Shown: positions 2,134 through 34,168, counted from the first letter of the stretch. The stretch is DNA of 64,000 nt from Deltaproteobacteria bacterium GWC2_42_11 (GCA_001797495.1 MGPS01000070.1:15879-79878); one strand, 5' to 3'. Translations and numbers: made by a program. Notes: generated by a model from the letters alone, not told the origin.

Positions 2134-3134
2134 TGAACAATGTTAAATGTTCAGTGTTGAGTGTTCAATGGCTGTGGGTCAAAGGTTTTTTGCCTTTGCT
2201 TTTACTCATAACTCTAAACTCATCACTCATCACTATTCTGGCTGGCTGTGCCTCAAAACAGGTTGATAAGATACCCGCAGTAAAACAGAAAGCAGTTGAT
2301 TTGAATTATGCAGGTGTTAAGTACAGTGATAATTATAATAAGGCACTGAAAAATTTTGAAAGGGCACTTATTATAAATAAAAAGATAGACAATAGAACTG
2401 GGATAGTTGTAAATGAACTTAATATTGCCAGAACATACATTGCAGAGGGCAGGTATGAGACTGCATTCCCATTTATAAAAGAGGCTGTGGATATGGCAGA
2501 ATCAGAAAGTGATGTTTTACTTTTGAGTGAAGCATATGCTACTATTTCTAATTATTATTACCTTAACGGTGATTATAATAAATCACTCAGTTATATTGAA
2601 AAGGGGATTGATATAGATAAACATCATGGCTTATCATCTGTTGGCGGCAAACTGAATCTGAAGGCACTTGTATATAAAGCGACAGGTGAAGCGGATAAAT
2701 CAATGGAGGTAATAAACGAGGCGTTAAAGCAGAATGAGTCAGGCAATAACAGAAGAGGTGTTGCTGACACATACAGGGTGTCAGGGAGTGTGATGTTGTC
2801 AGGAAAGAAGTATGATGATGCTGTGCTGAATTTTGAGAAAGCACTGGCAATAGATAAGGAACTGGCAAGAGGCAGGGCAATAGCACTGGATTTGACAGGA
2901 CTGGCCAATGTATATGTTGGCAAGGGTGAATACAGGAAGGCTATTGATTATCTGAAGAAGGCATATGATGTAAATGCTGCAAACAGTTATAAGGAGAATG
3001 CACTGGCTGATATTGACAGGATTATAGAAACAGCAACATTACTCGGAGATACCAATATTGTCAGGATATTTTCAGAAGAAAGGGAGAGGTTTGTTTCTGA
3101 CAGCAATTTATCTGTTGGCAGAGGTTTAAAGTGA
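2130..3134 (+). CDS. TPR-repeat lipoprotein
   Basis: A signal peptide is followed by the lipobox LAGC. Repeated TPR-like motifs follow (AxxYxxxGxYxKA...). Confidence 0.55.
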   Translation: MMNNVKCSVLSVQWLWVKGFLPLLLLITLNSSLITILAGCASKQVDKIPAVKQKAVDLNYAGVKYSDNYNKALKNFERALIINKKIDNRTGIVVNELNIARTYIAEGRYETAFPFIKEAVDMAESESDVLLLSEAYATISNYYYLNGDYNKSLSYIEKGIDIDKHHGLSSVGGKLNLKALVYKATGEADKSMEVINEALKQNESGNNRRGVADTYRVSGSVMLSGKKYDDAVLNFEKALAIDKELARGRAIALDLTGLANVYVGKGEYRKAIDYLKKAYDVNAANSYKENALADIDRIIETATLLGDTNIVRIFSEERERFVSDSNLSVGRGLK

Positions 3135-3209
3135 AGGTAAGTCTTCTCAGGTCAAACTGCCGGCTAATGTCATAGAGGACATACCTGAAACAGGTATAGA
3201 CTTTAATAC

Positions 3210-3368
3210 ATGCTTACCGATGAGTTCGAAAGGGAACTGATAATAAAGGCACTAGAGAAGGCAAGGGGTGTAAAAAACAAGGCTGCACAGTTATTGGGTA
3301 TAAACAGGACGACCCTGATAGAAAAGATGAAAAAAAGGGGATGCTTGCATAGCATAAAACCCATCTGA
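3210..3368 (+). CDS. Small stand-alone Fis-family HTH protein (52 aa)
   Basis: The ORF is below the track size cutoff. The sequence MLTDEFERELIIKALEKARGVKNKAAQLLGINRTTLIEKMKKRG is a textbook Fis/NtrC C-terminal HTH_8 motif. A stop lies 2 codons upstream, so the frame cannot extend. Confidence 0.35.
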   Translation: MLTDEFERELIIKALEKARGVKNKAAQLLGINRTTLIEKMKKRGCLHSIKPI

Positions 3369-3535
3369 AAACAATCCTTAAGTTTCAGAAAACATTCAGA
3401 TTTATGTTATAAATCAACAAGTTATAAAATTGTTCGCGCTGATTTAAAAAATATCTTGTATTTTCAAAATAATTTTGATTATTATATACTGTATACAATA
3501 AGTTTTGCCGGAATTTGGCTTAAAATAAATGGAAG

Positions 3536-3733
3536 GTGGTGATGGTAGTGGCAATAAAGATTACTCAAGACTGTGTAGCATGCGGCGTTTGTCTGCCTGA
3601 ATGTCCTGTAAATGCCATAACTGAAGGGGAGATATATGTTATAGACCCTTCGGTGTGTGTGGAATGCAAGGGCTATTATGATTCACCCAAGTGCGCTGAA
3701 GTCTGTCCTGTTGATTGCTGTGTACCAGCATAA
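3536..3733 (+). CDS. 2x[4Fe-4S] ferredoxin
   Basis: Two CxxCxxCxxxCP motifs are present (CVACGVCLPECP; CVECKGY...CAEVCP). A GGTGGTG RBS precedes the start. Confidence 0.8.
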   Translation: MVMVVAIKITQDCVACGVCLPECPVNAITEGEIYVIDPSVCVECKGYYDSPKCAEVCPVDCCVPA

Positions 3734-3760
3734 GACCGTTATACGTGAACGTTATGCGTT

Positions 3761-3812
3761 AGATGCCTGTCCCACCGAAACATCACGCACACGTATCACG
3801 GCATTCAAGGAG
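3761..3812 (+). promoter_or_regulatory. Conserved ~50-nt leader motif, copy 1 (upstream of hdrB-like)
   Basis: agatgcctgtcccaccgaaacatcacgcacacgtatcacggcattcaaggag. It is nearly identical to 8035-8087 and ends in the RBS. Confidence 0.5.
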
Positions 3813-3822
3813 TATTTTTACA

Positions 3823-4776
3823 ATGAAAGATTTTGCAATATTCTGGGGCTGTACAATTCAATCCCGTTTCCCATTTCTTGAAAAATCAACAAGGATGGTT
3901 TTGGATGGGTTTAACCTGCCATACAGGGATGTTGACGGTTTCACATGTTGTCCTGAGAAATCACTTGTTAATAACATTGACCGCGGCTTATGGGTTTTAA
4001 CTGCTGCAAGGAATATTGCACTCCTTGATAAAGCAGGGCTTGACCTTGTAAGTCCATGTACAGGATGTGTATCAAATCTTGCAACCGTTAACTCCGAACT
4101 CCATTTAAGTTATAAAGAAAAGGAGAAGGTAAACTCTGTACTGCATGAGGTCGGGCTTGAATTTAAAGGAAAGAATAAACTCAGTCACCTTGTCCCGTTC
4201 TTCCATGACGAGGTCGGCATCCATGCTGTAAAGAATAAGGTTGTAAAGCCTTTCAACGGGATGAGGATAGCAATACATTATGGCTGTCACATGATAAGGC
4301 CGAGCCATACACTGAAGAATGATGACCCGCTTGAACCTAAGAAGTTTGATAACCTTATAAAGGCACTCGGTGCTGAGAGCGTGCAGCATATGACAAAACT
4401 TATGTGCTGCGGACAGGGGCTTGACAGGGTTGACCAGCATGAAAATTCGCTCCATTTTGCAAGAATTAAACTTAAAGAATTGAAGGCACTGGGAATTGAT
4501 GCAATGACACTGTGCTGTCCGTCATGCTATCTGCAGTTTGACAATAACCAATTCCTCATGGAAAAGGAAGGTGAGAAGTTAGGCATACCGATACTTTATT
4601 TTACAGAACTCCTCGGACTTGCAATGGGTTATAAACAAGAAGACCTTGGTCTTGAGTCTCACAGGATTGATGTTACACCATTTCTTGAAAAATGGAACAG
4701 GTTAAACGGAGAGTTGTCCCATGTCAGCGACTTAAACAGAGAACTGGAGGAAGGTTTTGGAATCGCTCAACCTTAA
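3823..4776 (+). CDS. Heterodisulfide reductase subunit B-like protein (two CCG domains)
   Basis: Cys-rich CCG signatures are FTCCPEK...CTGC and LMCCGQG...LCCPSCY. The start is taken at MKDFAIFWGC behind a GGAG RBS; the track ORF extends further 5' through a repeated leader motif. Confidence 0.7.
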   Translation: MKDFAIFWGCTIQSRFPFLEKSTRMVLDGFNLPYRDVDGFTCCPEKSLVNNIDRGLWVLTAARNIALLDKAGLDLVSPCTGCVSNLATVNSELHLSYKEKEKVNSVLHEVGLEFKGKNKLSHLVPFFHDEVGIHAVKNKVVKPFNGMRIAIHYGCHMIRPSHTLKNDDPLEPKKFDNLIKALGAESVQHMTKLMCCGQGLDRVDQHENSLHFARIKLKELKALGIDAMTLCCPSCYLQFDNNQFLMEKEGEKLGIPILYFTELLGLAMGYKQEDLGLESHRIDVTPFLEKWNRLNGELSHVSDLNRELEEGFGIAQP

Positions 4777-5215
4777 ATTATTAGAGATATGCTTAAAGTG
4801 CGGCGCATGTTACCATATATGCCCATCCTGTCTTAATATGGAAGGATATGACCCAAGACTCGTTATAAAGGATATACTCGCAGGGCAGTATGAAAAATGG
4901 CTTAAGTCTAAGTCAATCTGGCAGTGTCTTGAGTGCCATCACTGCCTTGAGATATGTTTCCAGCACTACGGCTTTGAAAATGCAATGACTGCGATGAGGA
5001 CACTTGCAGCAAAAAAAGGCACAACACCTCCACAGGTGAAGAAGGGCTGGGATATATTTATGAAGACAGGAAAACTAGGCGAACCAACGGCATCTGCAAG
5101 AAAGAAATTGAATCTGCCTGAGGCTGCAAAGAGCGGGGCAGAAGATTTTAAGAAGATAGTGAAGATTTATCAGGAGAGAAAAGAGACTAAAGAAAGACTG
5201 AAGACCAAAGACTGA
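4757..5215 (+). CDS. Heterodisulfide reductase subunit C-like protein (2x[4Fe-4S])
   Basis: Motifs CLKCGACYHICP and CLECHHCLEICF are present. The gene overlaps the hdrB-like stop. Confidence 0.65.
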   Translation: MESLNLKLLEICLKCGACYHICPSCLNMEGYDPRLVIKDILAGQYEKWLKSKSIWQCLECHHCLEICFQHYGFENAMTAMRTLAAKKGTTPPQVKKGWDIFMKTGKLGEPTASARKKLNLPEAAKSGAEDFKKIVKIYQERKETKERLKTKD

Positions 5216-5300
5216 AGACTTTAAATGCAGACTTTAGACCATAGACTTTAAAGCAGACCATAGACTAAAGGCTAAAAACCCTCTAGTCTATAGTCTTTGG
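5187..5300. repeat. TAGACT palindromic repeat element (family R3), copy A
   Basis: agactgaagac...agaccatagactaaaggctaaaaaccctctagtctatagtctttgg. It supplies the last codons and stop of the hdrC-like gene and ends at the RBS of the next gene. Confidence 0.65.
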
Positions 5301-5316
5301 GTGAGCGGAGGCTATT

Positions 5317-6402
5317 GTGAGTCATAACTTTCAAAAAGACATTTCAGGCTGCGGTCTGATTGGTATTATAAATAAAGACCGTACGAGGATAAGCGGGAGT
5401 TTCGTAACTAAATCACTCTGCCTTATGAGGGACAGGGGGAATGGACTTGGCGCTGGTTATGCAGCATACGGCGTGTATCCCAAATATAAAGACCTGTATG
5501 CATTCCATATAATGTATGACGAACCGTCTGCGCAGAGGGATACAGAAGAATATTTAAAGAAAAATTATTATATAGAGAAAAAGGAACCGATGCCGACAGC
5601 GCCTGTGGAGGGTATTAAAATCCACCCCATCCTGTACAGGTATTTTGTAAAGCCTCTGTCAGAAAAGGCTGAAAGGGAATCTGCTGAACTGGAGGACGAC
5701 GACTTCGTTGTAAAGACTGTCATGAAAATAAACTCCGAGATAGATGGCGCATATGTGTTTTCCAGCGGCAAGGATATGGCAGTGTTCAAGGGTGTTGGTA
5801 TGCCAGGTGAGATTGCAAGGTTTTTCAGGATTGACGAATATGAAGGTTATATATGGACAGGACATACGAGGTTTCCGACAAATACTCCCGGCTGGTGGGG
5901 CGGGGCGCACCCGTTTACACTCCTTGACTGGTCGATTGTCCATAACGGGGAGATTTCTTCATACGGTATAAACAAGAGATACCTCGAGATGTATGGTTAT
6001 AAACTCACACTCCTGACAGATACAGAGGTTGTTGCGTATCTTTTTGACCTGCTTGTCAGAAGGCATGGTCTGGATGTGCTAACTGCATGCACAGCACTTG
6101 CAGCACCCTTCTGGAAAAATGTTGATACCATGCATGATGAAGAAAAAGAAGCGATGACCGCTTTAAGGGTGATATACGGGAGTGCATTGCTGAACGGTCC
6201 TTTCTCAATACTCTTCGGGCATAAGAATGGTCTTGTCGGTTTTAATGACAGGATTAAACTGAGGCCCCTTGTCGCTGCGACAAAAGGGAAAACCGTCTAT
6301 ATGGCTAGCGAGGAATCTGCCATAAGGGAGATATGTCCTAGCCCTGAAAAGATATGGTCGCCTAGGGCAGGCGAGCCTGTGATTGTTGAGTTGGAGAGTT
6401 AA
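5317..6402 (+). CDS. Class II glutamine amidotransferase domain protein (archaeal-type glutamate synthase large-subunit domain 1)
   Basis: The GCGLIGI Ntn-hydrolase nucleophile region and a GATase-2 fold pattern are present. A GTG start follows a GGAGG RBS. Confidence 0.7.
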   Translation: MSHNFQKDISGCGLIGIINKDRTRISGSFVTKSLCLMRDRGNGLGAGYAAYGVYPKYKDLYAFHIMYDEPSAQRDTEEYLKKNYYIEKKEPMPTAPVEGIKIHPILYRYFVKPLSEKAERESAELEDDDFVVKTVMKINSEIDGAYVFSSGKDMAVFKGVGMPGEIARFFRIDEYEGYIWTGHTRFPTNTPGWWGGAHPFTLLDWSIVHNGEISSYGINKRYLEMYGYKLTLLTDTEVVAYLFDLLVRRHGLDVLTACTALAAPFWKNVDTMHDEEKEAMTALRVIYGSALLNGPFSILFGHKNGLVGFNDRIKLRPLVAATKGKTVYMASEESAIREICPSPEKIWSPRAGEPVIVELES

Positions 6403-6478
6403 TGAGTTTAGGAGTTAGAGAGTAAAAACTCCTTAACCCCAGAACTCCTCAACTCCTTAACTAATTTTGGAGGTTTAA

Positions 6479-7990
6479 ATGTTTAGAAGTTTAGTGCTGC
6501 CAGAATTTCTGGCAAAGATAGACCAGGTAAAATGCATCAGGTGTAAAAGATGCATACAAAACTGTGGCTGGAGTGTGTATTCATGGAGCGGCGACAAAGT
6601 ACTGATAGATACATTCAAGTGTGTAAAGTGCCTCAGGTGTTACCACTACTGCCCCGAAGAGGCTATCGCCATACTCGATAACCCTGTCAGGTACAGGAAT
6701 AATGCAAACTGGGGCTTTTACAATATAAGGAATATTAAAAAGCAGGCAGAGACAGGTGGGATACCTCTTACAGGCATGGGAAGCGACATGCCGTATCCTG
6801 TCCTTTTTGACAGCCTTCTTATAGATGCTTGTCAGGTTACAAATCCATCCATTGACCCTTTGCGAGAGCCAATGGAACTTCGGACATACCTCGGCAAAAA
6901 ACCTGCAAAACTTGAGTTTGAAAAGGGCAAAGATGGAAAACAAAAACTCAAGACAAAGATGCCGCCCCAGATTAAACTCGAGATGCCATTTATATTTGCG
7001 CCGATGTCATACGGCTCAATAAGCCTTAATGCGCAGAAGACCCTTGCGATCGCTGCAAAGGAACTTGGGATTGTAATGAATACAGGCGAAGGCGGCTTGC
7101 ACGAGGATATATACCCATATCGGGATAATATAATAGTCCAGGTCGCATCAGGCAGGTTTGGTGTAAATCCTGACTACCTTAATGCAGGTGTCGGAGTGGA
7201 AATAAAGATAGGTCAGGGTGCAAAGCCTGGTATAGGCGGACATCTGCCAGGTGAGAAGATACCCCTTGATGTTGCAAAGACGAGGATGATACCTATTGGC
7301 ACAGATGCACTTTCTCCTGCACCGCAGCACGATATATATTCCATAGAGGATTTGAGGCAGTTGATATTTGCGATAAAAGAGGCAACCGATTATGCAAAGC
7401 CAGTCTCAGTAAAGATTGCTGCTGTCCATAATGTCGCTGCTATCGCATCAGGCATTGTCAGGGCAGGCGCAGATATTGTGTATATAGACGGGTTCAGAGG
7501 CGGGACAGGCGCTGCACCTTCAATAATAAGAGACCACCTCGGTATCCCGATAGAACATGCAATTGCAGCAGTAGATGACAGGTTAAGGCAGGAAGGGATA
7601 AGGAATGAGGCATCAATTATAGCAGCAGGTGGGATAAGGAGCAGTGCAGACGCCGCCAAGGTAATAGCACTTGGTGCAGATGCTGTTGCACTCGGAACCT
7701 CAGCACTTATAACAATGGGGTGTACAGTCTGCGGTAAGTGTTATACAGGTAACTGCAGTTGGGGTATAACAACGCAGAAACCTGAACTCACTGTAAGACT
7801 TGACCCAGAGGTTTATTCGGAGAGGCTTATAAATATGATACACGCATGGAGCCACGAGTTGAAGGAGATACTGGGCGCACTGGGTATAAATGCTGTTGAG
7901 AGCCTGAGGGGGAGCAGGGAGAGGCTCCGCGGTGTCGGACTAGATGCGCAGACACTTGACATATTAGGTATTAAACCGGCAGGGAGATAA
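6479..7990 (+). CDS. Glutamate synthase FMN-binding domain protein (GltB domain 2) with an N-terminal 4Fe-4S ferredoxin domain
   Basis: N-terminal motifs CIRCKRCIQNC and CVKCLRCYHYCP are followed by the conserved FAPMSYGSIS...GEGG...KIGQGAKPG...GGTGAAP FMN/GOGAT central-domain motifs. Confidence 0.8.
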   Translation: MFRSLVLPEFLAKIDQVKCIRCKRCIQNCGWSVYSWSGDKVLIDTFKCVKCLRCYHYCPEEAIAILDNPVRYRNNANWGFYNIRNIKKQAETGGIPLTGMGSDMPYPVLFDSLLIDACQVTNPSIDPLREPMELRTYLGKKPAKLEFEKGKDGKQKLKTKMPPQIKLEMPFIFAPMSYGSISLNAQKTLAIAAKELGIVMNTGEGGLHEDIYPYRDNIIVQVASGRFGVNPDYLNAGVGVEIKIGQGAKPGIGGHLPGEKIPLDVAKTRMIPIGTDALSPAPQHDIYSIEDLRQLIFAIKEATDYAKPVSVKIAAVHNVAAIASGIVRAGADIVYIDGFRGGTGAAPSIIRDHLGIPIEHAIAAVDDRLRQEGIRNEASIIAAGGIRSSADAAKVIALGADAVALGTSALITMGCTVCGKCYTGNCSWGITTQKPELTVRLDPEVYSERLINMIHAWSHELKEILGALGINAVESLRGSRERLRGVGLDAQTLDILGIKPAGR

Positions 7991-8034
7991 AAAGAACCGT
8001 AGTGGCGCAGGCTTCCAGCCTGTGATGACAGGCA

Positions 8035-8087
8035 AGATGCCTGTCCCACCGAAGCATCAACGCACACGCATCACGGTTTTTAAGGAG
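8035..8087 (+). promoter_or_regulatory. Conserved ~50-nt leader motif, copy 2 (upstream of GOGAT domain-3 gene)
   Basis: agatgcctgtcccaccgaagcatcaacgcacacgcatcacggtttttaaggag. Confidence 0.5.
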
Positions 8088-8091
8088 AAAC

Positions 8092-8829
8092 ATGCTTACA
8101 ATAGACGCAAAAGGGGTTTACTACAGGGAATTAAATCAGAAGGTGCGGGAGGTTGTTTCCAAAGGCGAGAAGGAGATACTCCTCAAAAATGTCAACGGGC
8201 AGTATTATATCGGAGACGGCCTGCAGGGCGATGTAAAAATCACTATTGAGGGTGTGCCGGGCAATGACCTTGCCGCATTTATGGACGGCCCTACAATTAT
8301 TATAAAGGCCAATGCACAGGATAATATCGGCAATACAATGAACAGCGGTAAGGTTGTTGTGCACGGTAATGCAGGGGATGTGCTTGGTTATGGCATGCGC
8401 GGCGGCAAACTGCATATAAGGGGTGATGTTGGTTACAGGGTGGGGATACATATGAAGGGATATAAGAAGCAGATACCTGTAATTATTGCCGGGGGGAAAG
8501 CAGGGGACTTTTTTGGGGAATACATGGCAGGCGGTGTGCTTATACTGCTGAATCTGGATAACCGTGATGACAGGCATATAACAGGCGACTATCTTGGGAC
8601 AGGTATGCACGGTGGGACGATATTTATAAGGGGTAATGTTGATAAAGGACTATGCGGTGCAGAGGTCAGCATACATGAGCCAATAAAGGATGATATTGCT
8701 GTCCTTAAAGGGTATCTTGCAGAATACTGTGCGGATTTCAATTTAAATCTTTCTGATGTAATGAGCGGCTGTTTTAAGAAGATTATACCGACATCGCTTC
8801 GGCCTTATGGTAATTTATACGCATATTGA
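8092..8829 (+). CDS. Glutamate synthase domain 3 protein (GXGXG repeats)
   Basis: Repeated G-x-G-x-G beta-helix motifs are present (VHGNAGDVLGYGMRGGKLHIRGDVGYRVG). Confidence 0.7.
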   Translation: MLTIDAKGVYYRELNQKVREVVSKGEKEILLKNVNGQYYIGDGLQGDVKITIEGVPGNDLAAFMDGPTIIIKANAQDNIGNTMNSGKVVVHGNAGDVLGYGMRGGKLHIRGDVGYRVGIHMKGYKKQIPVIIAGGKAGDFFGEYMAGGVLILLNLDNRDDRHITGDYLGTGMHGGTIFIRGNVDKGLCGAEVSIHEPIKDDIAVLKGYLAEYCADFNLNLSDVMSGCFKKIIPTSLRPYGNLYAY

Positions 8830-8854
8830 CTTTTTTTTGCCAAAGGTTTATTAT
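8826..8854 (+). promoter_or_regulatory. Candidate sigma70-type promoter for zapB-like/zapA/ssrS
   Basis: TTGACT, a 17-nt spacer, then TATTAT. The -35 box overlaps the stop codon of the upstream gene. Confidence 0.35.
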
Positions 8855-8905
8855 TAAGCAGTATAAAGACATTTATTGCGGTTGTATTAATGGAGAAAAT
8901 GGCAA

Positions 8906-9435: not shown

Positions 9436-9616
9436 TTTCCCCTGCTATGTTCGTGATTAGCAGAATATTCAGAACCAACACCATCAAATAGGGAGCCTTC
9501 CCTGACTGACAGCCGACAATCCTGCTGGACGGGAAGTCGAAAGCAGTTAATTAAGGCACCCACCTATTTTATAGGTTCGAATAGACTGCTGACACGGCAT
9601 TACAGCGGGGGAGATA
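9436..9616 (+). ncRNA. ssrS: 6S RNA (ssrS)
   Basis: It lies between zapA and 5-formyl-THF cyclo-ligase, as in many bacteria. The 5' end UUUCCCCUGCUAUGUUCGUG pairs with the 3' end CACGGCAUUACAGCGGGGGAGA to form a closing stem. An internal ACCUAUUUUAUAGGUUCGAAUAGACUGCUGAC region resembles the E. coli 6S central-bubble flank. Length is ~180 nt. Confidence 0.75.
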
Positions 9617-14174: not shown

Positions 14175-14372
14175 TAGTTTTTCTGGTGCGATTTTATATA
14201 GAGCGTCATAAATAATTACGCATCATAATCAATAAAACACAAGTATTTAATGCGTTTTATTTAAGCCATCAAATAGGTGATGGAGTTCACCTTTAACCGC
14301 TTTAATGGCTGATGACTCCTACAAATTATTGGGAACAGATTTAAAATCTGTCCCCAAAAGGAGGAGGCTGAC

Positions 14373-15533
14373 ATGAAGGCGGATTTTATTCCATTAGTTG
14401 TAGGTTTATTAGTCTTTATCTCAAGTCTGATTTCTTTAAGGGTTGGATTATCCGTAGCAATAATAGAGATACTCCTTGGAGCCATTGCAGGGAATCTGGG
14501 ACTTAAGACAGAGGATTGGATGATATATCTGGCAGGTTTTGGCGGGATTATTTTAACATTTCTGGCAGGAACTGAAATTGATACCCGGCTGATGAAGGAG
14601 AAATTCAAGGAAAGTTTTTTTATTGGTATATTTTCTTTTTTGGTTCCATTTATTGGGGTTTTTCTTTATACCTATCATATTGCAGATTGGTCACTATCCG
14701 CATCACTAATTGCAGGAACCGCATTGTCCACTACATCCCTTGCCGTGGTTTATTCAATTCTTGTGGAAACAGGTTTAACAAAGACGGAGATTGGTAAATT
14801 GATAATGGCATCTACATTTGTAACAGATATGGGGGTTGCGTTTGCAATGAGTATATTATTCATTAAACCTACTCTATATACCTTTGCCTTTATATCGATT
14901 TCTATTATTGTAATAATCTTTGCAATTAAATTTTCTCATTATATCTTTGACAATCCTGAACTAAAGAACAAGGTAGTTGAGCCAGAAATAAAATATATAT
15001 TCCTCCTCATCCTTATTTTTATATACTTTGCAAACATGGGAGATGGGCATGCGGTTCTGCCTGCATTTGTATTAGGACTTTTTATGTCAAGACATTTTAC
15101 CGAGACATCTGAGACAAAGGTAGTTCGGAATAGGCTCCGAACAGTTGCCTATGCAGTAATTACCCCAATATTTTTTGTTGTTGGCGGAATGAAGATTTCT
15201 TTGCCGCTTATTTTATCCGCATTTGGGCTCTTTGTTATCCTTTTTCTCCTCAAGATAGCGGCCAAGTTTATCGGTGTTTATTTTCTTGCAAAAAGATATA
15301 TCCCAGGTGGAAGTATGTACACCACACTTTTGATGAGTACAGGACTTACCTTTGGAACAATAGCGAGTGTATTTGGTTTAAATGCAGGTTTTATAAATCA
15401 GGTGCAGTACTCTGTTCTTGTTGGAGTAGTTGTGGCAAGCGCAGTAATCCCAACATTCATAGCCCAAAAGTGGTTTATGCCTGTTCACTCAGAGGATATA
15501 GTTGATATAAACGGCGATGACATAGATAGATAA
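14373..15533 (+). CDS. Cation:proton antiporter (CPA family Na+/H+ exchanger)
   Basis: Polytopic membrane protein with a Na_H_Exchanger-like helix pattern. Confidence 0.7.
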   Translation: MKADFIPLVVGLLVFISSLISLRVGLSVAIIEILLGAIAGNLGLKTEDWMIYLAGFGGIILTFLAGTEIDTRLMKEKFKESFFIGIFSFLVPFIGVFLYTYHIADWSLSASLIAGTALSTTSLAVVYSILVETGLTKTEIGKLIMASTFVTDMGVAFAMSILFIKPTLYTFAFISISIIVIIFAIKFSHYIFDNPELKNKVVEPEIKYIFLLILIFIYFANMGDGHAVLPAFVLGLFMSRHFTETSETKVVRNRLRTVAYAVITPIFFVVGGMKISLPLILSAFGLFVILFLLKIAAKFIGVYFLAKRYIPGGSMYTTLLMSTGLTFGTIASVFGLNAGFINQVQYSVLVGVVVASAVIPTFIAQKWFMPVHSEDIVDINGDDIDR

Positions 15534-18547: not shown

Positions 18548-18715
18548 CGGTGTGCCTAATGCACAAGATGTTCACACCCAAAAATGCCCAGATGCAAGGC
18601 GGAGCAAGGCTTCAAGCGAGGCATACTTTCATAGTATGTTGAGCGAAGAAGCCGCAGCGACAACACACGGGGCACCCATTGCGGAGCAATGGGTCGGGGT
18701 ATTTTTGGGCGTGAA
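18548..18715 (-). repeat. Dispersed ~170-nt intergenic repeat (family R2), reverse orientation
   Basis: The reverse complement aligns with 38976-39140 over the core GTTGTCGCTGCGGCTTCTKCGCTCAACATACT...AAGTATGCC...TTGCTCCGCCTTGCA. Confidence 0.7.
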
Positions 18716-24785: not shown

Positions 24786-24834
24786 GTTTTTTAGCCTATC
24801 AAAAGGTATCAGGATTGTAAATATTAAAAACAAT

Positions 24835-25018
24835 CCGTAAAATAGCGATTAAAAACCTCGCTATTTTACAAACCTGCGATTTGCCTGCCATACTTCGTTA
24901 TCGGACAATTTTTACTCCTCACCGTATCGGTGAACATACGGCTCGTCGTAAAAATTGTCCGCTGCCTCGTCTGGCAGGCAACTTGCAAGTTTCCCCAAAA
25001 ATCAAAGTCTATTTTTGG
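24835..25018. repeat. 184-nt structured dispersed element (family R1), copy 1
   Basis: More than 90% identical to 53828-54011. It contains several perfect hairpins (aaaatagcga/tcgctatttt; ggacaatttttac/gtaaaaattgtcc; gcctgcca/tggcaggc; cccaaaaat/atttttggg). Confidence 0.75.
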
Positions 25019-25142
25019 GCAATGGATAATGGTCTACGCTTGCAATAAATTTATCCTGTAATAAATCCTGTAATAAATTTATCCTTGACAACTTGAGTAG
25101 AATTGTATTATGAATTAACACACAATTTAATATAGATATATG

Positions 25143-25259
25143 CTTATTCAGAGTGGTGGAGGGACTGGCCCTGTGAAACCACAGCAACCGGCCTGTTGCA
25201 AACGGGCGGCAGGTGCTAACTCCAGCAAGGTTTGTGATTAAAAAGCCTTGAAAGATAAG
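25143..25259 (+). promoter_or_regulatory. SAM-I (S-box) riboswitch
   Basis: P1 pairs CUUAUUCAGAG with CUUGAAAGAUAAG. Conserved cores GGUGGAGGGACUGGCCC, GUGAAACC, CAGCAACC and GGUGCUAACUCCAGCA are present. Confidence 0.85.
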
Positions 25260-25274
25260 ATTAGGTAATAAAAG

Positions 25275-25307
25275 CCTCTTCTTGATTTCAAGAAGGGGTT
25301 TTTTTTT
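25275..25307 (+). terminator. Riboswitch expression-platform terminator
   Basis: gcctcttcttga-tttc-aagaagggg hairpin followed by a T9 run. Confidence 0.7.
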
Positions 25308-25341
25308 GCAAATCATCAAAAGAAACAATAAGGAGCAGGAT

Positions 25342-26595
25342 ATGAGTTATGTAAAAGGGCTTAAATGCAGGGAATGCGGGAAGGAGTATCCGAAAGAACC
25401 CTTGCATGTATGCGAGTACTGCTTTGGTCCCCTTGAGGTTAATTATGATTATGAGAAGATCAAAAGGGCAGTAAGCAGGGATATAATATCAAAACGACAG
25501 CCGAATATGTGGAGGTACAGAGAACTCCTGCCGATAGACGGTGAGCCGGCAGTAGGTTTTGATGTAGGTTATACCCCTCTGATAAGGGCAAAAAACCTTG
25601 CGAAGGCTCTCGGTGTAAAGGAGTTATATCTGAAAAACGATGCGGTAAATTATCCGACATTATCCTTTAAAGACAGGGTTGTTGCTGTAGCAATATCAAA
25701 GGCATTGGAATTCGATTTTAAGGTTGTTGCATGTGCGTCTACAGGTAACCTTGCAAATTCTGTTGCTGCAAATGCTGCTGCCTGCGGTATGGAAAGTTAT
25801 GTGTTCATCCCTTATGACCTTGAGCAGACAAAGATTTTAGGCACGCTTGTTTACGGCACAAACCTTGTTGCAATAAAGGGTAACTATGACGAAGTAAACA
25901 GGCTGTGCAGCGAGATAGCAGGCAAGTACGGCTGGGCATTCGTAAATATAAATATAAGACCTTATTATGCAGAGGGTTCAAAGGCATTCGGCTATGAGAT
26001 TGCAGAGCAGATGGGCTGGAAACTCCCAAAGCATATTGTTGTGCCAATGGCTGGAGGTTCCCTTATCACAAAGATATGGAAGGCATTCAAGGAATTCCAC
26101 AAACTTGGACTTATTGATAATCTTGGTACAAAGGTCTATGGTGCACAGGCAACAGGGTGTGCCCCGATTACCACAGCAGTGAAGGAAGGTGCAGAACTTA
26201 TAAAGCCTGTAAAACCGAATACAATTGCAAAATCCCTTGCCATAGGAAATCCGGCAGACGGCTTTTATGCTGCAAGGGTGATGAGGGAGAGCGGCGGTTG
26301 GGGAGAGGATGTGTCAGATGAGGAAATTATTGAGTCAATCAGACTTCTTGCTGAGACAGAAGGTATCTTTACTGAGACAGCAGGCGGCGTAACACTTGGG
26401 GTTACTAGAAAACTCATTGAGCAGGGAAGGATACCAAGGGATGAATCAATAGTTGTATCAATTACAGGCAACGGACTCAAGACACAGGAGGCACTTGCAG
26501 GACGGCTAACTGTTTCTATGACAATTGATGCAAAACTTTCTGATTTTGATGAACTACTGAAAAAGCAGAATAAGGTTTATGATGCGAAAGACTAA
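25342..26595 (+). CDS. Threonine synthase family PLP enzyme with N-terminal Zn ribbon; candidate O-phosphohomoserine-dependent homocysteine synthase (MetM-like)
   Basis: SFKDR PLP-lysine motif and the ThrC fold pattern are present. Start is at MSYVKGLKCRECG behind an AAGGAG RBS. The gene sits directly behind the SAM riboswitch and upstream of sulfur-carrier genes. Confidence 0.6.
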   Translation: MSYVKGLKCRECGKEYPKEPLHVCEYCFGPLEVNYDYEKIKRAVSRDIISKRQPNMWRYRELLPIDGEPAVGFDVGYTPLIRAKNLAKALGVKELYLKNDAVNYPTLSFKDRVVAVAISKALEFDFKVVACASTGNLANSVAANAAACGMESYVFIPYDLEQTKILGTLVYGTNLVAIKGNYDEVNRLCSEIAGKYGWAFVNINIRPYYAEGSKAFGYEIAEQMGWKLPKHIVVPMAGGSLITKIWKAFKEFHKLGLIDNLGTKVYGAQATGCAPITTAVKEGAELIKPVKPNTIAKSLAIGNPADGFYAARVMRESGGWGEDVSDEEIIESIRLLAETEGIFTETAGGVTLGVTRKLIEQGRIPRDESIVVSITGNGLKTQEALAGRLTVSMTIDAKLSDFDELLKKQNKVYDAKD

Positions 26596-26677
26596 CCAAT
26601 TTTGCAGGCACGGTTTCAACCGTGCTTTATTTGCACGAATAAATTCGTGCCTACATTTTTGAGGAAGGAGATAAAAT

Positions 26678-27637
26678 ATGAGCATAACAGACCATTTTAT
26701 AGAAGACAAGGTAACCCGAATTCCTGTCAAGAAAGAAGGACAGGATGTTAAGGTAGATTTTAATGAACTCAAATCCGGCGGTTTTATCAAGCAGAGGCAG
26801 AAGGATTTATTTACAGTAAGGCTCCGCTGCCCCGGAGGAAGGCTTACCACAAAGAAACTGATAGAACTTGCAAGGATTGCTGATAAATACAGCAAAAAGG
26901 GTGTTGTGCATTTGAGTTTCAGGCAGTCCCTTGAGATTCTGTATGTTGACTACAGAGACTTTGACGCATTGGTTGCTGACCTGAGAAATGTTGGGCATAA
27001 GGTTGCATCATGCGGCCCAAGGGTCAGGGTTCCGATTGCGTGCGGCGGCTGTGAATACAATCCGAATGGTCTTACGGATACACAAAAGATGGCTGAGATG
27101 GTTGATGAAAAATTCTTCGGTACATCAACCTATCATAAGTTTAAAATGTCGTTTTCAGGATGCCCTATTGACTGTGCCAGGACAAGGGAGGCTGATTTGG
27201 GGTTTCAGGGTGTTGTTGAGCCGGCATGGGATGAGGATACATGCACAGGATGCACAATATGTTCAAGGGCTTGCAAAGAAGGTGCGATTGTTTCACATCC
27301 TGAAACAGGCAAGCCCATATACGACCCTGCAAAGTGCATATACTGCGGAGACTGCATAAGGGCATGTCCTACAGAATCATGGAAGGCAGAAAGATACGGG
27401 CATTTTGTAAGGGTCGGTGGTAAGCACGGCAGACACCCGCGGGAGGCAAATGATGCTGCGGTATTTATCCCTGATGAAAAAGTTTCAAATGTAATAGAAA
27501 AGACGCTTGAGTGGTATAAGATAAACGGCAAAAAGGGAGAGAGGATAGGAACAACCATTGACAGAATAGGATTAAAAAGTTATATAGAGTTTATGAAAAA
27601 TACATTCAGTGATGCAACAATAATTACCGGAGTATAA
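26678..27637 (+). CDS. Small sulfite/nitrite reductase-like hemoprotein with a C-terminal 2x[4Fe-4S] ferredoxin domain
   Basis: Siroheme-[4Fe-4S] Cys motifs (CGGC...SGCPIDCA) are followed by CTGCTICSRAC and CIYCGDCIRACP. Confidence 0.6.
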   Translation: MSITDHFIEDKVTRIPVKKEGQDVKVDFNELKSGGFIKQRQKDLFTVRLRCPGGRLTTKKLIELARIADKYSKKGVVHLSFRQSLEILYVDYRDFDALVADLRNVGHKVASCGPRVRVPIACGGCEYNPNGLTDTQKMAEMVDEKFFGTSTYHKFKMSFSGCPIDCARTREADLGFQGVVEPAWDEDTCTGCTICSRACKEGAIVSHPETGKPIYDPAKCIYCGDCIRACPTESWKAERYGHFVRVGGKHGRHPREANDAAVFIPDEKVSNVIEKTLEWYKINGKKGERIGTTIDRIGLKSYIEFMKNTFSDATIITGV

Positions 27638-27638
27638 A

Positions 27639-27872
27639 ATGGATATAAAGATTGACAAATCCCTTGATTTAAGAAATGTCTTATGCCCAATAAATTTTGT
27701 TAAAACAAAACTTGCATTGGAAACAATGGAAAAGGGTCAGGTGCTTGAGGTTATTATAGATGACGGCGAACCTATTCAGAATGTCCCGAAAAGCGTTAAG
27801 GAAGAGGGGCATAAGATTGTTGAGGTAAAAAAGGAAGACAATCATTTTAGATTGAAGATAGAAAGAAGATAA
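27639..27872 (+). CDS. TusA-like sulfurtransferase
   Basis: LDLRNVLCPINFVKTKLAL matches the TusA/SirA LDxxGLxCPxP motif, with the second Pro replaced by Asn. Confidence 0.6.
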   Translation: MDIKIDKSLDLRNVLCPINFVKTKLALETMEKGQVLEVIIDDGEPIQNVPKSVKEEGHKIVEVKKEDNHFRLKIERR

Positions 27873-27880
27873 AAAACAGA

Positions 27881-27967
27881 TTAAAGACTGAAGACCCGAG
27901 ACTTCAGACACAAGACTCAAGACCACAGATTTAAGACTCAAAACTTTAGTCTATAGTCTTAAGTCTG
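27881..27967. repeat. TAGACT palindromic repeat element (family R3), copy B
   Basis: agactgaagac...aaactttagtctatagtcttaagtctg. Shares agtctatagtct and agac(t/c)-type units with 5187-5300 and 40112-40187. Confidence 0.6.
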
Positions 27968-27986
27968 CATTTAAACGGAGGTTAAG

Positions 27987-28268
27987 ATGGCAATAAAGGT
28001 AAGGATTCCAACACCACTCAGAAAACTTACAAATGGTAAGGATGAGGTAATAGGGGAAGGTAAGAATGTAAAGGAACTTATAAATAACATTGAGACACAG
28101 TATCCGGGATTAAAGGAAAGGATATGCGAGGAGGATGGGAAAATAAGGCGGTTTGTGAATATCTATGTAAATGACGAGGATATAAGATTTAAAAACAGCA
28201 TAGATACAGAACTGAAAGATAGTGATGAGGTTTCAATTATACCGGCAATAGCAGGGGGTAAGTTTTGA
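27987..28268 (+). CDS. MoaD/ThiS-family sulfur carrier protein (CysO/MetO-like)
   Basis: A 93-aa beta-grasp protein ending in the diglycine AIAGGKF is adjacent to E1-like and JAMM genes. Confidence 0.6.
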   Translation: MAIKVRIPTPLRKLTNGKDEVIGEGKNVKELINNIETQYPGLKERICEEDGKIRRFVNIYVNDEDIRFKNSIDTELKDSDEVSIIPAIAGGKF

Positions 28269-28501
28269 AGAAGAGGTTTTACCTTACATACCCAAAGGAA
28301 CTGATAAAAGAGCCGCTGATATATCAGGTAGGTAAACTCTACAATGTTATAACAAATATAAGGCAGGCAACTGTTTCAGATAATATTGGTCTTGTTGCCA
28401 TTGAACTTGACGGAGAGTCTGGAGATATAGAGAAGGCGCTAAACTATTTTGCTGAAAAGGGTGTTAAGGTAGAGCCTATTGAACTGGATGTGGTAGAGTA
28501 G
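28265..28501 (+). CDS. NIL-domain protein
   Basis: The pattern LIYQVGKLYNVITNIRQATV...GLVAIELDG...ALNYFAEKGVKVE resembles the MetN C-terminal NIL domain. Confidence 0.45.
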   Translation: MKKRFYLTYPKELIKEPLIYQVGKLYNVITNIRQATVSDNIGLVAIELDGESGDIEKALNYFAEKGVKVEPIELDVVE

Positions 28502-28623
28502 GTTGAAACAGTTTAGACCGTTCAAACCGTTTAAGTAATTATTATCAGGGTAAATTCGGGATAAGAGTTTGCCCTTTTTGTTTAAGAAGATTCTTTACCA
28601 TTCTTGTAAGGAAAGGTTATAAT

Positions 28624-29562
28624 ATGAGCATACAGCAAAAAATAATCTGGGGTTGCAAAAATCCGAAGGCTTCTGTTCTTGAACTTGTTGGGAATACGCC
28701 TCTTGTCAGGATTAACAGGATTACAGAGGGTTTGAGCAAGGGTGTTCAGGTCTATGCAAAACTTGAATCATATAACCCCGGCGGCTCTGTAAAGGACAGG
28801 GCAGCATTTGGTATGATAAAGGATGCAGAAGATGCAGGCAGACTCACAAAAGATAAGATTATACTTGATTCAACATCAGGGAATACAGGTATTGCTTATG
28901 CATGGATTGGCACTGTTAAGGGTTATTATGTTGAACTTGTTGTGCCTAAAAATGTGAGTGAAGAAAGGAAAAAGATTTTAAAGGCATTTGGTGCAAAGAC
29001 AATCTTTTCAAACCCGATGGAAGGCTCTGACGGTGCCATAAGGCTTGCATGGAAACTTTATGTTGAAAACCCGGATAAATACTGCAAACTAGACCAGTAC
29101 AATAATCCATCCAATCCTCAGGCACACTATGAGACAACAGGTCCTGAGATTATAGAGCAGACAGACGGCAGGGTTACGCACTTTGTTGCAGGGATAGGCA
29201 CAGGCGGAACAATAATGGGTACAGGCAGAAGGCTAAAGGAATTTAACCGTGCAATACAGGTAATAGCAGTTGAACCTGCAACAGCGCTTCATGGTCTTGA
29301 AGGTTTGAAACATATGCCGTCATCAATTGTTCCAGGCATATACCATGAGGGAGAACTTGACAGAAAAATATCAGCGCCAACAGAAGAATCCTATGGAATG
29401 GCAAAGAGACTGGCAAGGGAGGAAGGGCTTTTTGTGGGGCAGTCATCAGGCGCTGCGATGTGGGGGGCGCTTCAGGTTGCAAGGGAACTTGAGGAAGGCG
29501 TGGTTGTTGTTATATTTCCTGATGGGGGGGACAGGTATTTGTCCACAGCATTGTGGGACTAA
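28624..29562 (+). CDS. cysM: Cysteine synthase (CysM/CysK family, PLP-dependent)
   Basis: SVKDRAA lysine motif, TSGNTGIA and GIGTGGT loops are present. Confidence 0.8.
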   Translation: MSIQQKIIWGCKNPKASVLELVGNTPLVRINRITEGLSKGVQVYAKLESYNPGGSVKDRAAFGMIKDAEDAGRLTKDKIILDSTSGNTGIAYAWIGTVKGYYVELVVPKNVSEERKKILKAFGAKTIFSNPMEGSDGAIRLAWKLYVENPDKYCKLDQYNNPSNPQAHYETTGPEIIEQTDGRVTHFVAGIGTGGTIMGTGRRLKEFNRAIQVIAVEPATALHGLEGLKHMPSSIVPGIYHEGELDRKISAPTEESYGMAKRLAREEGLFVGQSSGAAMWGALQVARELEEGVVVVIFPDGGDRYLSTALWD

Positions 29563-29587
29563 GACAACATTCTGCGAATGTTGAATT

Positions 29588-29687
29588 GTAAATTGAAGAT
29601 TGGAAGTTGGAAATTTTAAAATGGAATAAAAAGACAATTTGCAATTTAAATTTTACAATTTTCATTTTACAATTAGAGCGAAGCGAC
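29588..29687 (+). repeat. 105-bp duplicated leader element, copy 1 (upstream of mec)
   Basis: Near-identical to 30083-30197. It contains tandem gaagattg/gaaaattg octamers, then ttgcaatttaaattttacaattttcattttacaattagagcgaagcgac ending at the start codon. Confidence 0.7.
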
Positions 29688-29688
29688 C

Positions 29689-30099
29689 ATGCTTTATCTA
29701 TCTAAAGACATATATAACGAGATTATCAGCCATGCTGAGAAATCATACCCTTATGAAGGATGCGGTGTTCTTGTAGGCAGGGATAAGAGGGTTGTGAAGA
29801 TTTGTCCTGTTGAGAACATAAACAAAGACAGGGCAAATGACAGGTATGAGATAGACCCAAAGGATTTGCTCAGGGTTGAGAAAGGGGTGTCCGAAAAAGG
29901 GCTGAATGTCCTTGGGTTTTTTCATTCACATCCTGACCATCCTGATATGCCGTCTGAGTTTGACAGACAAAGGGCATGGCAATTTTATTCGTATATGATT
30001 GTATCTGTGCATAATGGAAAATCTGTTTCAGTAAAATCATGGACATTTGAAGATGAAAATGAACCATTCAGAGAGGAGGAGGTAAAGATTGAAGATTGA
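29689..30099 (+). CDS. mec: JAMM/MPN+ metalloprotease (Mec-like sulfur-carrier peptidase)
   Basis: EGCG...HSHPDHPDMPSEFD JAMM motif. Confidence 0.8.
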   Translation: MLYLSKDIYNEIISHAEKSYPYEGCGVLVGRDKRVVKICPVENINKDRANDRYEIDPKDLLRVEKGVSEKGLNVLGFFHSHPDHPDMPSEFDRQRAWQFYSYMIVSVHNGKSVSVKSWTFEDENEPFREEEVKIED

Positions 30100-30197
30100 A
30101 AATTGAAAATTGGAAATTGGAAATTTTAAAATGGAATAAAAAGACAATTTGCAATTTAAATTTTGCAATTTTCATTTTACAATTAGAGCGAAGCGAC
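30083..30197 (+). repeat. 105-bp duplicated leader element, copy 2 (upstream of E1-like gene)
   Basis: See copy 1. The 5' part overlaps the last codons of mec. Confidence 0.7.
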
Positions 30198-31019
30198 ATG
30201 AATTTCACAGAAGAGCAAATAGAGAGATATTCAAGGCATATAATCCTGCCTGAGGTCGGCGGCAAAGGACAGGCAAAGTTATTAACTGCAAAGGTCTTTG
30301 TGCTTGGTGCAGGCGGGCTTGGATCACCTGCACTTTATTACCTTGCTGCAGCAGGTGTAGGCACAATCGGCATAGCAGATGCTGATTGTGTTGATTTATC
30401 TAACCTTCAGAGGCAGATAATCCATTCTACATCAAAAATAGGGCTGCCCAAAGTGGAGTCAGCAAAAAGGACTATTGAAGACTTAAACCCTGATGTAAAG
30501 GTTATTGCATACAACGAAAGGCTCAATATTGGCAACATAACACAGATAATAAGGGATTATGATGTAATTCTTGACGGCAGTGATAATTTCCCAACAAGAT
30601 TTCTGATGAACGATGCCTGCTTTTTTGAAAAAAAGACACTTGTTTCAGGGAGCATGTTCAGGTTTGATGGTCAGGTTACAATATTCCAGCCGCATGAGGG
30701 TAAGCCGTGCTACAGGTGTCTTTACCCTGAGCCCCCGCCAAAAGGGCTTGTACCCAGTTGTCAGGAAGCAGGCGTGCTCGGTGCACTGGCAGGCGTGATA
30801 GGTGTTATACAGGCAGTTGAGGCGATAAAACAGGTTTTAAAGATAGGCGATGAACTTGCAGGATACTTACTTATATTTGATGCACTTGCAATGACATTCA
30901 GAAAGGTTAAGGTCAGGAGAGACCCGCAGTGCAGCCTTTGCGGTGATAATCCGACAATAAAGGAACTGATTATGTATGAAGAGACGTGTGAGATAAGGGA
31001 AAAGAGGTGTGAAAAATAG
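30198..31019 (+). CDS. moeB: ThiF/MoeB-family E1-like sulfur-carrier adenylyltransferase
   Basis: GAGGLGS nucleotide-binding loop and CxxC...CxxC Zn motif are present. Start is taken at MNFTEEQIERYSRH; the track ORF starts inside the upstream repeat. Confidence 0.8.
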   Translation: MNFTEEQIERYSRHIILPEVGGKGQAKLLTAKVFVLGAGGLGSPALYYLAAAGVGTIGIADADCVDLSNLQRQIIHSTSKIGLPKVESAKRTIEDLNPDVKVIAYNERLNIGNITQIIRDYDVILDGSDNFPTRFLMNDACFFEKKTLVSGSMFRFDGQVTIFQPHEGKPCYRCLYPEPPPKGLVPSCQEAGVLGALAGVIGVIQAVEAIKQVLKIGDELAGYLLIFDALAMTFRKVKVRRDPQCSLCGDNPTIKELIMYEETCEIREKRCEK

Positions 31020-31048
31020 ATGGAAATCACGCATTATGGTATTTCTAT

Positions 31049-32263: not shown

Positions 32264-32265
32264 TA

Positions 32266-33693: not shown

Positions 33694-34154
33694 GTTGCGT
33701 ACTTCTAATACTATCAACATCAAGGACATCGCAGAATGCCATTGAATATGCTGTTGACCTTGCAAAAAAGGGAAAGGCTAAACTCGTTGTCCTCTATATA
33801 ATAGAGACTGAACTTACAAATGAGGTCTTTGATAAATTTACAGACATAGGTTTCATTGGCGATAAGCCGTCAACTCAACTGACTGAAGCAATCATGAAGG
33901 AATACCGGCAGCGCGGTTATGAGGAGATGGGTAAGGTTCAAATCAGGGCAATGGAAGAGAATGTTGATTTTGATGCTGTTACGACACAGGGTGATTTTGT
34001 TGAAAAGGCCATTGAAGTGATTGATAGGTACAAGGTTACAACAGCAGTAGCAATAAAAAGGAAGAGGTCTGCATTTTTAAAATATTTTTCAAAATCAGTA
34101 GTTGATGAACTTGTTGAAAAGGCGCCGTGCAAGGTAGAGGTATTTGAAGAGTAA
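33690..34154 (+). CDS. Universal stress protein (UspA family)
   Basis: About 150 aa with the Usp alpha/beta pattern (KLVVLYII...VVDELVEKAPCKVEV). Confidence 0.6.
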   Translation: MSCVLLILSTSRTSQNAIEYAVDLAKKGKAKLVVLYIIETELTNEVFDKFTDIGFIGDKPSTQLTEAIMKEYRQRGYEEMGKVQIRAMEENVDFDAVTTQGDFVEKAIEVIDRYKVTTAVAIKRKRSAFLKYFSKSVVDELVEKAPCKVEVFEE

Positions 34155-34168
34155 AAAAAGGAGATGAT

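Follow-up and report, generated by a model that had tools for sequence, protein, structure and literature searches.

A six-gene operon in the genome of Deltaproteobacteria bacterium GWC2_42_11 probably encodes a three-subunit glutamate synthase (GOGAT) that lacks GltD, together with an iron-sulfur protein pair of the HdrBC type that would act as its electron-input module. The genes all lie on the plus strand within 3536-8829 of the 64,000-nucleotide stretch analyzed here (GCA_001797495.1, MGPS01000070.1:15879-79878; hereafter the window) and encode, in order, a ferredoxin (fdx), an HdrB-like and an HdrC-like protein, and GOGAT domains 1, 2 and 3 (D1, D2 and D3). The original prediction, made from the sequence alone, had named these six co-directional genes and their domains, and profile searches bore it out, with all of the open reading frames (ORFs) found and every domain matched (Table 1). 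The GOGAT part is the known split archaeal-type enzyme; the widely conserved HdrBC pair, its proposed electron-input module, is the undescribed part.

Gene content and linkage across genomes

The amidotransferase, FMN and GXGXG domains of this glutamate synthase reside on separate polypeptides, and the FMN subunit carries both a Fer4 N-terminus and Fe-S ligands, as is characteristic of the split type. D1 contains SGC-GLIG with a candidate catalytic Cys at residue 12 as well as an HNGEI motif; removal of an 11-aa propeptide is assumed and would expose Cys12. The PDB alignment of D1 spans residues 144-342 only, that is, without the Cys12 region. D2 combines an N-terminal dicluster (Fer4_10/Fer4_7, residues 13-63) with an Fe-S ligand motif of the form C-x2-C-x2-C-x4-C, and it matches the FMN domain of the Synechocystis ferredoxin-dependent enzyme (Fd-GOGAT, 1llw) at E 9e-61 with GQGAKPG.GG conserved. 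Three of its cysteines align to the Synechocystis C-x5-C-x4-C (1llw residues ~1137-1148), and the fourth lies between them. A GltD small subunit (Fer4_20 + Pyr_redox_2) is absent from the operon and its flanks, and tblastn with a Pyr_redox_2 protein gave no match in the window. No FrhB-like fourth subunit is encoded in the operon or the profiled flanks, the rest of the window having been profiled in part only. Among the PDB matches there is no solved structure of a split GOGAT or of an HdrBC-GOGAT complex.

Several observations indicate that the genes form one unit. The hdrB and hdrC genes overlap by 20 nt, and a consensus scan of the plus strand at 5216-5316, between hdrC and D1, found neither a terminator-like nor a promoter-like site. 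Among relatives the hdrC-D1 gap has a minimum of 3 nt and a median of 69.5 nt, and in Methanoperedens and Schekmanbacteria hdrBC overlaps D1. The original prediction had named two observations that would speak against the linkage, namely a terminator or promoter between 5215 and 5317 placing hdrBC on a separate transcript, and the absence of this gene order from related genomes. Neither holds, because no such site separates hdrC from D1 and the gene order is conserved.

The conservation was surveyed with an HdrB-homologue profile, which retrieved 80 loci from species-representative genomes that were then scored by tblastn with the window proteins. Because the survey was run from the hdrB side, its counts describe how often a GOGAT gene lies beside hdrBC and not the share of split GOGATs that possess HdrBC. 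When the count is limited to loci in which at least 1.5 kb of sequence follows hdrC, a GOGAT gene lies on the same strand beside hdrBC in 63 of 64, and the sole exception (L073) ends upstream at a contig edge. D1, D2 and D3 are all present in 49 of the 52 loci with enough room. About 68 loci belong to groundwater or sediment metagenome-assembled genomes (MAGs) labelled Deltaproteobacteria or Thermodesulfobacteriota (HdrB identity 62-88%), and all of these show the order fdx-hdrB-hdrC-D1-D2-D3, after which zapB-zapA-MTHFS-rny usually come, as they do in the window. Outside the window's clade the hdrBC-GOGAT pairing is kept without the ferredoxin, in Nitrospirota (L069, L070, L074, L076), in Methanosarcinales (L079, where hdrBC is fused and followed by D1-D2-D3), in Methanoperedens (L081), in Candidatus Argoarchaeum (L089, followed by glnA), in Schekmanbacteria (L088, preceded by glnA) and in Bacillota. 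A glnA gene adjoins the cluster in Bacillota as well as in Schekmanbacteria and Argoarchaeum. Across groups, HdrB and D2 rank in parallel by identity, as co-inheritance would give. The linkage is therefore not a product of chance, since the gene order is kept in essentially all related genomes, across phyla and domains. A merely accidental adjacency of unrelated modules, for which the 101-nt spacer at 5216-5316 and nothing further could be cited, is refuted by this synteny and can practically be dismissed.

Two of the archaeal loci carry additional features. The Methanosarcinales MAG (L079) possesses a second, separate hdrC-hdrB pair after D3 (7221-8635; 35% HdrB identity), and the Argoarchaeum locus (L089) has a 149-aa ORF without a Pfam match between D1 and D2 (2972-3421).

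Table 1. Positions in the window of the operon's genes and of the elements around and between them
Feature	Position	Strand	Remarks
AT-rich upstream region, probable operon promoter	3369..3535	+	weak sigma-70-like matches at 3444-3490; inferred only
Short Alvin/YfhL-type 2x[4Fe-4S] ferredoxin, 65 aa	3536..3733	+	Fer4/Fer4_7 profiles
Copy A of dispersed intergenic repeat	3761..3812	+	runs into hdrB Shine-Dalgarno sequence
HdrB-like subunit, 317 aa	3823..4776	+	two CCG domains (PF02754, 80 bits)
HdrC-like subunit, 152 aa	4757..5215	+	Fer4_8/9/10; two CxxCxxCxxxC motifs
Hairpin/repeat in hdrC-D1 spacer	5236..5296	+	second copy at 40116-40176 (89%); no U-tract, not a terminator
GOGAT D1, class-II (Ntn) glutamine amidotransferase	5317..6402	+	GATase_2
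Hairpin in D1-D2 spacer	6404..6447	+	-20.7 kcal/mol, z = -2.4
GOGAT D2, 503 aa, N-terminal 2x[4Fe-4S] + FMN/Glu_synthase barrel	6479..7990	+	Glu_synthase 452 bits
Copy B of dispersed repeat, long hairpin	7992..8091	+	-39.3 kcal/mol, z = -4.6; runs into D3 Shine-Dalgarno sequence
GOGAT D3, GXGXG beta-helix	8092..8829	+	GXGXG 113 bits

Proposed electron input to the glutamate synthase

The HdrB-like protein begins at ATG 3823 and not at 3763, because its homologues all begin MK(E/D)FA.FWGC and a Shine-Dalgarno sequence (AAGGAG) lies at 3807-3812; the 20 additional residues of the 3763 ORF are the intergenic repeat in translation. Both CX31-39CCX35-36CXXC motifs are complete (C10, C42/43, C79, C82; C155, C195/196, C232, C235), and all ten of the CCG cysteines are invariant among 15 diverse homologues with HdrB identity down to 62%, which argues that the catalytic chemistry of HdrB is retained. 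The nearest solved structures are those of methanogen HdrB (E 4e-69 to 4e-57; 8rvu_b 4e-69, 5odc_B 5e-59). The TfrB model NF004898 matches both hdrB and hdrC of the window. Neither HdrA (as in HdrABC) nor the membrane subunit HdrE (as in HdrDE) is encoded in the operon, its flanks (1-15.5 kb) or the related loci inspected.

The Bacillota loci are the most revealing of a possible electron source. Desulfotomaculum copahuensis (L071) has the order glnA-glnA-D1-D2-D3-lpd-hdrBC, and in L075 and L077 the order is glnA-D1-D2-D3-lpd-lipB-lipA-(76/77-aa ORF)-hdrBC. In four others (L082-84, L090) an ANTAR regulator gene is followed by glnA-D3-lpd-(Biotin_lipoyl protein)-hdrBC-D1-D2, such that the thiol genes and hdrBC lie inside the GOGAT set, between D3 and D1. 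The Lpd of L075 scores 548.9 against TIGR01350, above the 408.8 cutoff, with GGTCLHWGC and HAHPTLSE present, and its LipB and LipA lie above their respective cutoffs. The 76-aa ORF directly 5' of hdrBC in L075 matches E2 lipoyl domains, including the ..TSKA.. lysine. Together these genes make up all that is needed to supply a protein-bound dithiol, and they stand immediately before the gene of the CCG protein. Within the window's clade, one member (L033) does encode an E2 nearby; it was considered as a free lipoyl carrier and rejected, being an ordinary 407-aa E2 on the opposite strand.

The arrangements in Bacillota also bear on whether the ferredoxin and HdrBC constitute an independent ferredoxin:disulfide reductase, for instance in redox homeostasis, that is co-transcribed with GOGAT and stands outside its electron path. 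The closeness of HdrB to true heterodisulfide reductases and the separate hairpin-bearing spacers of 76-101 nt between the window genes would fit such a role, which is nevertheless distinctly unlikely. The pairing survives in two domains and several phyla, shuffled gene orders keep hdrBC inside the GOGAT set (D3-lpd-LCP-hdrBC-D1-D2, LCP being the lipoyl carrier), some lineages have overlapping stop and start codons, and GOGAT would be left without any encoded reductase partner.

In the window's clade the slot of the Bacillota lipoyl carrier is occupied by the ferredoxin gene, which lies 5' of hdrB in 63 of the 73 loci with room, these being all members of the clade. The ferredoxin contains the motifs CxxCxxCxxxCP and CxxCx8CxxxCP, and its true start may be ATG 3539 or GTG 3545. 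The closest model is that of the YfhL-type dicluster ferredoxins (NF033683; 73 bits, under the cutoff of 86); compared with YfhL, the window protein is shorter and bears one more conserved Cys at its C-terminus. This ninth Cys, beside the eight cluster cysteines, lies three residues from the C-terminus (…CPVDCCVPA). Cys60 is kept in 68 of 68 orthologues, and Cys59 varies (A/C/S).

The non-cubane clusters of HdrB are known to interconvert disulfides and dithiols, with HdrC relaying electrons; at about -0.29 V, lipoamide is an adequate donor for glutamine-driven 2-oxoglutarate reduction, as is CoM-S-S-CoB at about -0.14 V. Set beside the observed gene content, motifs, linkage and partner genes, this background suggests a path for which we infer complex formation, the direction in which electrons flow and the identity of this organism's donor from sequence. 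HdrBC would replace GltD or FrhB as the electron-input module in this GOGAT subclass. Reductant may enter at HdrB, whose two non-cubane [4Fe-4S] sites would oxidize a dithiol, and/or at HdrC, whose two cubane clusters would accept electrons from the operon ferredoxin. From HdrBC the electrons would pass to the N-terminal 2x[4Fe-4S] region of D2, on to its Fe-S cluster and FMN, and would finally reduce 2-iminoglutarate, the product of 2-oxoglutarate and of ammonia that D1 releases. The carrier would be lineage-specific and encoded directly 5' of hdrB. In Bacillota the predicted relay runs from NAD(P)H through Lpd and the free lipoyl domain to HdrBC and GOGAT; in Methanosarcinales and Methanoperedens the donors would presumably be CoM-SH + CoB-SH, as in thiol:fumarate reductase; and in the window's clade the dedicated 9-Cys ferredoxin would serve, either via HdrC or through a thiol acting at HdrB, which might be the ferredoxin's own C-terminal Cys or come from an unlinked source such as a lipoyl protein.

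Glutamate synthases are classed by reductant, with NADPH, NADH and ferredoxin recognized besides an F420 form that is still unproven. HdrBC-GOGAT could quite possibly represent a fifth class by donor, a dithiol-driven one, in which the carrier would be a lipoyl protein in Bacillota, CoM-SH + CoB-SH in Methanoperedens, Argoarchaeum and Methanosarcinales, and the 9-Cys ferredoxin in the window's clade, the last possibly presenting its C-terminal Cys to HdrB as DsrC does to DsrK. The ferredoxin- or thiol-coupled electron input that had been predicted thus gains strong comparative support from the lpd, LipB, LipA and free lipoyl domain genes of Bacillota, although the function itself is still read from gene context.

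A number of findings weigh against this reading of HdrBC as the electron-input module. The HdrB-like protein scores 270.7 bits against TIGR03288, under the equivalog cutoff of 345, and because of this it is classed as an HdrB-family member and not as a CoM-S-S-CoB reductase. The HdrC-like protein likewise scores 65.9 bits against TIGR03290, under the cutoff of 160, with both cubane motifs present. The window operon contains neither lpd nor a lipoyl-carrier gene, and in principle the ferredoxin could reduce the ferredoxin domain of D2 directly, leaving HdrB without an obvious job. Two loci (L072, 10001-12856; L080, 9980-12888) encode hdrB-hdrC followed by D2 and have neither D1 nor D3 in the vicinity. 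The hdrBC-D2 sets of these two loci may encode an ammonia-dependent enzyme or serve a different function.

Some of the same observations suit a plain ferredoxin-dependent GOGAT, in which HdrBC would only link ferredoxin to D2, as an iron-sulfur wire or a docking adaptor, and the window's clade would carry out no thiol/disulfide chemistry. Besides the missing lipoyl genes, the position of the ferredoxin as first gene in every clade member and the ferredoxin-like entry domain already present in archaeal-type D2 point this way. We consider it not very likely, however, for the invariance of the CCG cysteines speaks for a retained catalytic site, the orthologous Bacillota module is wired to a lipoyl relay, and two non-cubane clusters would be superfluous for a wire. 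It is very improbable that the complex works in reverse or in regulation, with glutamate oxidation reducing a disulfide or with HdrBC as a thiol-redox sensor gating GOGAT. The two couples involved, thiol/disulfide and 2-oxoglutarate/glutamate, lie at similar midpoint potentials, which counts for such a reading; yet the glutaminase domain with its Ntn Cys and the neighbouring glnA point to GS-GOGAT assimilation, irreversible through glutamine hydrolysis, and Lpd and the lipoate-synthesis genes suit a supply line for reductant.

Intergenic repeats and neighbouring genes

The hdrB and D3 genes had also been predicted to share a conserved leader motif. The two copies of the motif, GATGCCTGTCCCACCGAARCATC(A)ACGCACACGYATCACGG, are real; the window has them at 3762-3801 and 8036-8076 only, with 0 expected from shuffled sequence, and the match covers 40-50 nt overall (3761-3812 and 8035-8087). 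The conserved leader did not stand, and was rejected because an exact search of all 80 orthologous loci returned zero matches to the motif core. In the orthologous loci the spacers are occupied by low-complexity hairpins of unrelated sequence or by an element resembling a miniature inverted-repeat transposable element (MITE). Two near-identical copies directly before two ribosome-binding sites, with none expected by chance, might still suggest a cis-regulatory leader (a riboswitch or a protein-binding site) co-regulating hdrB and D3, but this is highly improbable. Rfam 15 held no family for the motif in 3360-8900 at the gathering threshold or at E <= 10, the two copies fold differently, and the other spacers of the operon likewise belong to dispersed repeat families. 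Moreover, a metagenome contig (L086) bears a 97-nt copy that is 94% identical, including the Shine-Dalgarno sequence, and lies 5' of an unrelated gene. It was one of three matches in a metagenome scan; the other two (L085, L087) were set aside, with only a 23-mer in common and the surrounding sequence unrelated. The motif and the hairpin of the hdrC-D1 spacer belong to the intergenic repeats that are dispersed in this genome and typical of it, and the latter folds no better than shuffled sequence (z = -1.1).

Repeats of other kinds are frequent. Nearly each of the operon spacers (5216-5316 and 6403-6478 in the window; also L002-L006) has a different long hairpin with short periodic units, e.g. 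GGTTAGAGGTTGGAGG…CCTCAAACCTCAATCC; among relatives the spacer sequence is hypervariable and the hairpin always there. The MITE-like element, with terminal inverted repeats …ACGCTGAAAAATGCCCATCT…GCATCTGG.CATTTTTGAGCGT…, occurs in the window at 18570-18705, 36639-36765 and 38990-39138, as well as in the D2-D3 spacer of L003, the D1-D2 spacer of L005 and contig L086. Direct-repeat pairs are found at 24816-25019 / 53809-54012 (204 nt, 91%), beside a S-adenosylmethionine (SAM) riboswitch and tRNA-His respectively, and at 29585-29687 / 30095-30197 (103 nt, 96%).

Upstream of the operon, the sigma-70-like matches score 9/12 and do not exceed shuffle expectation, and inspection by eye of 3369-3535 for a sigma-54 promoter, near a stand-alone Fis-type HTH gene, revealed none. 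That gene encodes a 52-aa Fis-family HTH_8 protein (3210-3368, plus strand) just 5' of the operon, with a counterpart in L003 (76% identity) and not in other relatives. The remaining 5' neighbours encode an ABC ATPase, MlaD and a TPR lipoprotein; those on the 3' side are zapB, zapA, 6S RNA, MTHFS, RNase Y, YmdB and TyrS. The cluster is located in a housekeeping region rather than an island. The 6S RNA (RF00013, 84 bits; 9436-9615, plus strand) lies between zapA and the 5-formyltetrahydrofolate cyclo-ligase gene, the classical order zapA-ssrS-ygfA. A co-directional ALDH-family gene is found ~224 nt 5' of fdx in 34 of 40 relatives (L001, L002, L004, L006-L009 and 27 others); it is missing from the window and L003. 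Its best model is the methanogen-type lactaldehyde dehydrogenase (517 bits against a cutoff of 650). The gene was kept out of the model because the window lacks it and it scores under every NCBIfam cutoff.

Elsewhere in the window, a fluoride riboswitch (RF01734, 62 bits; 14267-14328, plus strand) directly precedes a gene of the Na_H_Exchanger family (14373-15533) and not crcB. The SAM riboswitch (RF00162) heads a sulfur-related cluster at 25141-37963 (plus strand) that encodes a PALP enzyme, a small NIR_SIR sulfite reductase with a Fer4 insert, a ThiS-like sulfur carrier, a second PALP enzyme, a JAB peptidase, a ThiF E1-like enzyme and a radical SAM protein and, further on, APS kinase, PAPS reductase and ATP sulfurylase. 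Taken together, the cluster looks to be one for Cys/homocysteine synthesis that depends on a protein thiocarboxylate and is tied to the assimilatory reduction of sulfate.

Relation to known systems and significance

That the arrangement is undescribed, as had been predicted, agrees with the full-text literature searched, a body outside which most subscription papers fall, where no description of it was found. Nor did that literature describe HdrBC, a lipoyl carrier or Lpd in the role of GOGAT partner, and a prior description may exist. The closest functional precedent is thiol:fumarate reductase (TfrAB) of Methanothermobacter, in which an HdrC/HdrB-like Fe-S/CCG module oxidizes CoM-SH + CoB-SH and feeds a flavoenzyme for a biosynthetic reduction. 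A similar transfer from thiol to flavoenzyme through an HdrBC-type module is proposed here, and the TfrB model matches both of the window genes. The acceptor differs, being fumarate reductase there and GOGAT here, and in TfrB the CCG and Fer4 domains are fused to an FrdB-like subunit. The bacteria considered here lack CoM and CoB as far as we know.

HdrABC-MvhAGD of methanogens (PDB 5odc, 8rvu, 7bkb) provides the closest solved relative of HdrB, and the CCG and HdrC cubane motifs are intact in the window proteins. In contrast to that complex, HdrA with its bifurcating flavin is absent here, the equivalog cutoffs are missed, and the proposed flow is from thiol to enzyme instead of from enzyme to heterodisulfide. 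Fd-GOGAT (1llw) and the NADPH-dependent GltBD (1ea0, 2vdc) share the homologous FMN domain and the conserved positions of the Fe-S ligands, whereas they have single alpha chains of ~1500 aa in place of three genes; the extra N-terminal dicluster, the fourth motif Cys and the absence of GltD are particular to the enzyme described here. Archaeal-type split GOGAT has the same separate GATase_2, Fer4+Glu_synthase and GXGXG genes and no GltD, and its physiological reductant is likewise unproven. In the putative F420 form the partner is FrhB-like, in contrast to HdrB + HdrC with a ferredoxin or lipoyl relay here. FrhB10 is reported to adjoin glutamate synthase subunits (PMC9012536), and an F420-dependent glutamate synthase 'remains to be proven by purification' (PMC3087415).

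A tie between Hdr-like proteins and lipoate has a parallel in the sHdr-LbpA system of sulfur oxidation, where a lipoate-binding protein and an Hdr-like complex are reported to be linked genetically (bioRxiv 10.1101/2023.12.18.572138). The likeness extends to the Bacillota variant only. The sHdr system comprises HdrA, the sulfur transferases DsrE and TusA and a GcvH-like LbpA and serves dissimilatory sulfur oxidation, in contrast to the E2-type lipoyl domain, classical LipB/LipA and Lpd that accompany GOGAT here; none of its components (HdrA, duplicated HdrBC, GcvH-like LbpA, DsrE/TusA) is present in the window operon. The 'succinate operon' of Pseudoclostridium thermosuccinogenes encodes fumarate reductase with Flx-Hdr subunits, thiols being proposed as the electron link (PMC7282089). 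It has FlxABCD and HdrA, with bifurcation proposed, unlike the HdrBC-only module found here.

GltD-less archaeal-type GOGAT is common in anaerobes, and to our knowledge its physiological donor has never been established. The conserved HdrBC partner offers a concrete, testable answer to the donor question, accompanied in some lineages by a complete lipoyl relay. It predicts a route from NAD(P)H through lipoyl and Fe-S carriers into the GOGAT of Bacillota, for which Desulfotomaculum copahuensis is a cultured carrier, and, in methane- and ethane-oxidizing archaea, a connection of nitrogen assimilation with the CoM/CoB thiol pool. If true, lipoate would gain a new role outside the 2-oxoacid and glycine cleavage systems and sHdr, and the chemistry of HdrB-type non-cubane clusters would be seen to serve biosynthesis in ordinary bacteria as well. 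The name "CoB-CoM heterodisulfide reductase", which these genes routinely receive in annotation, would then be corrected.

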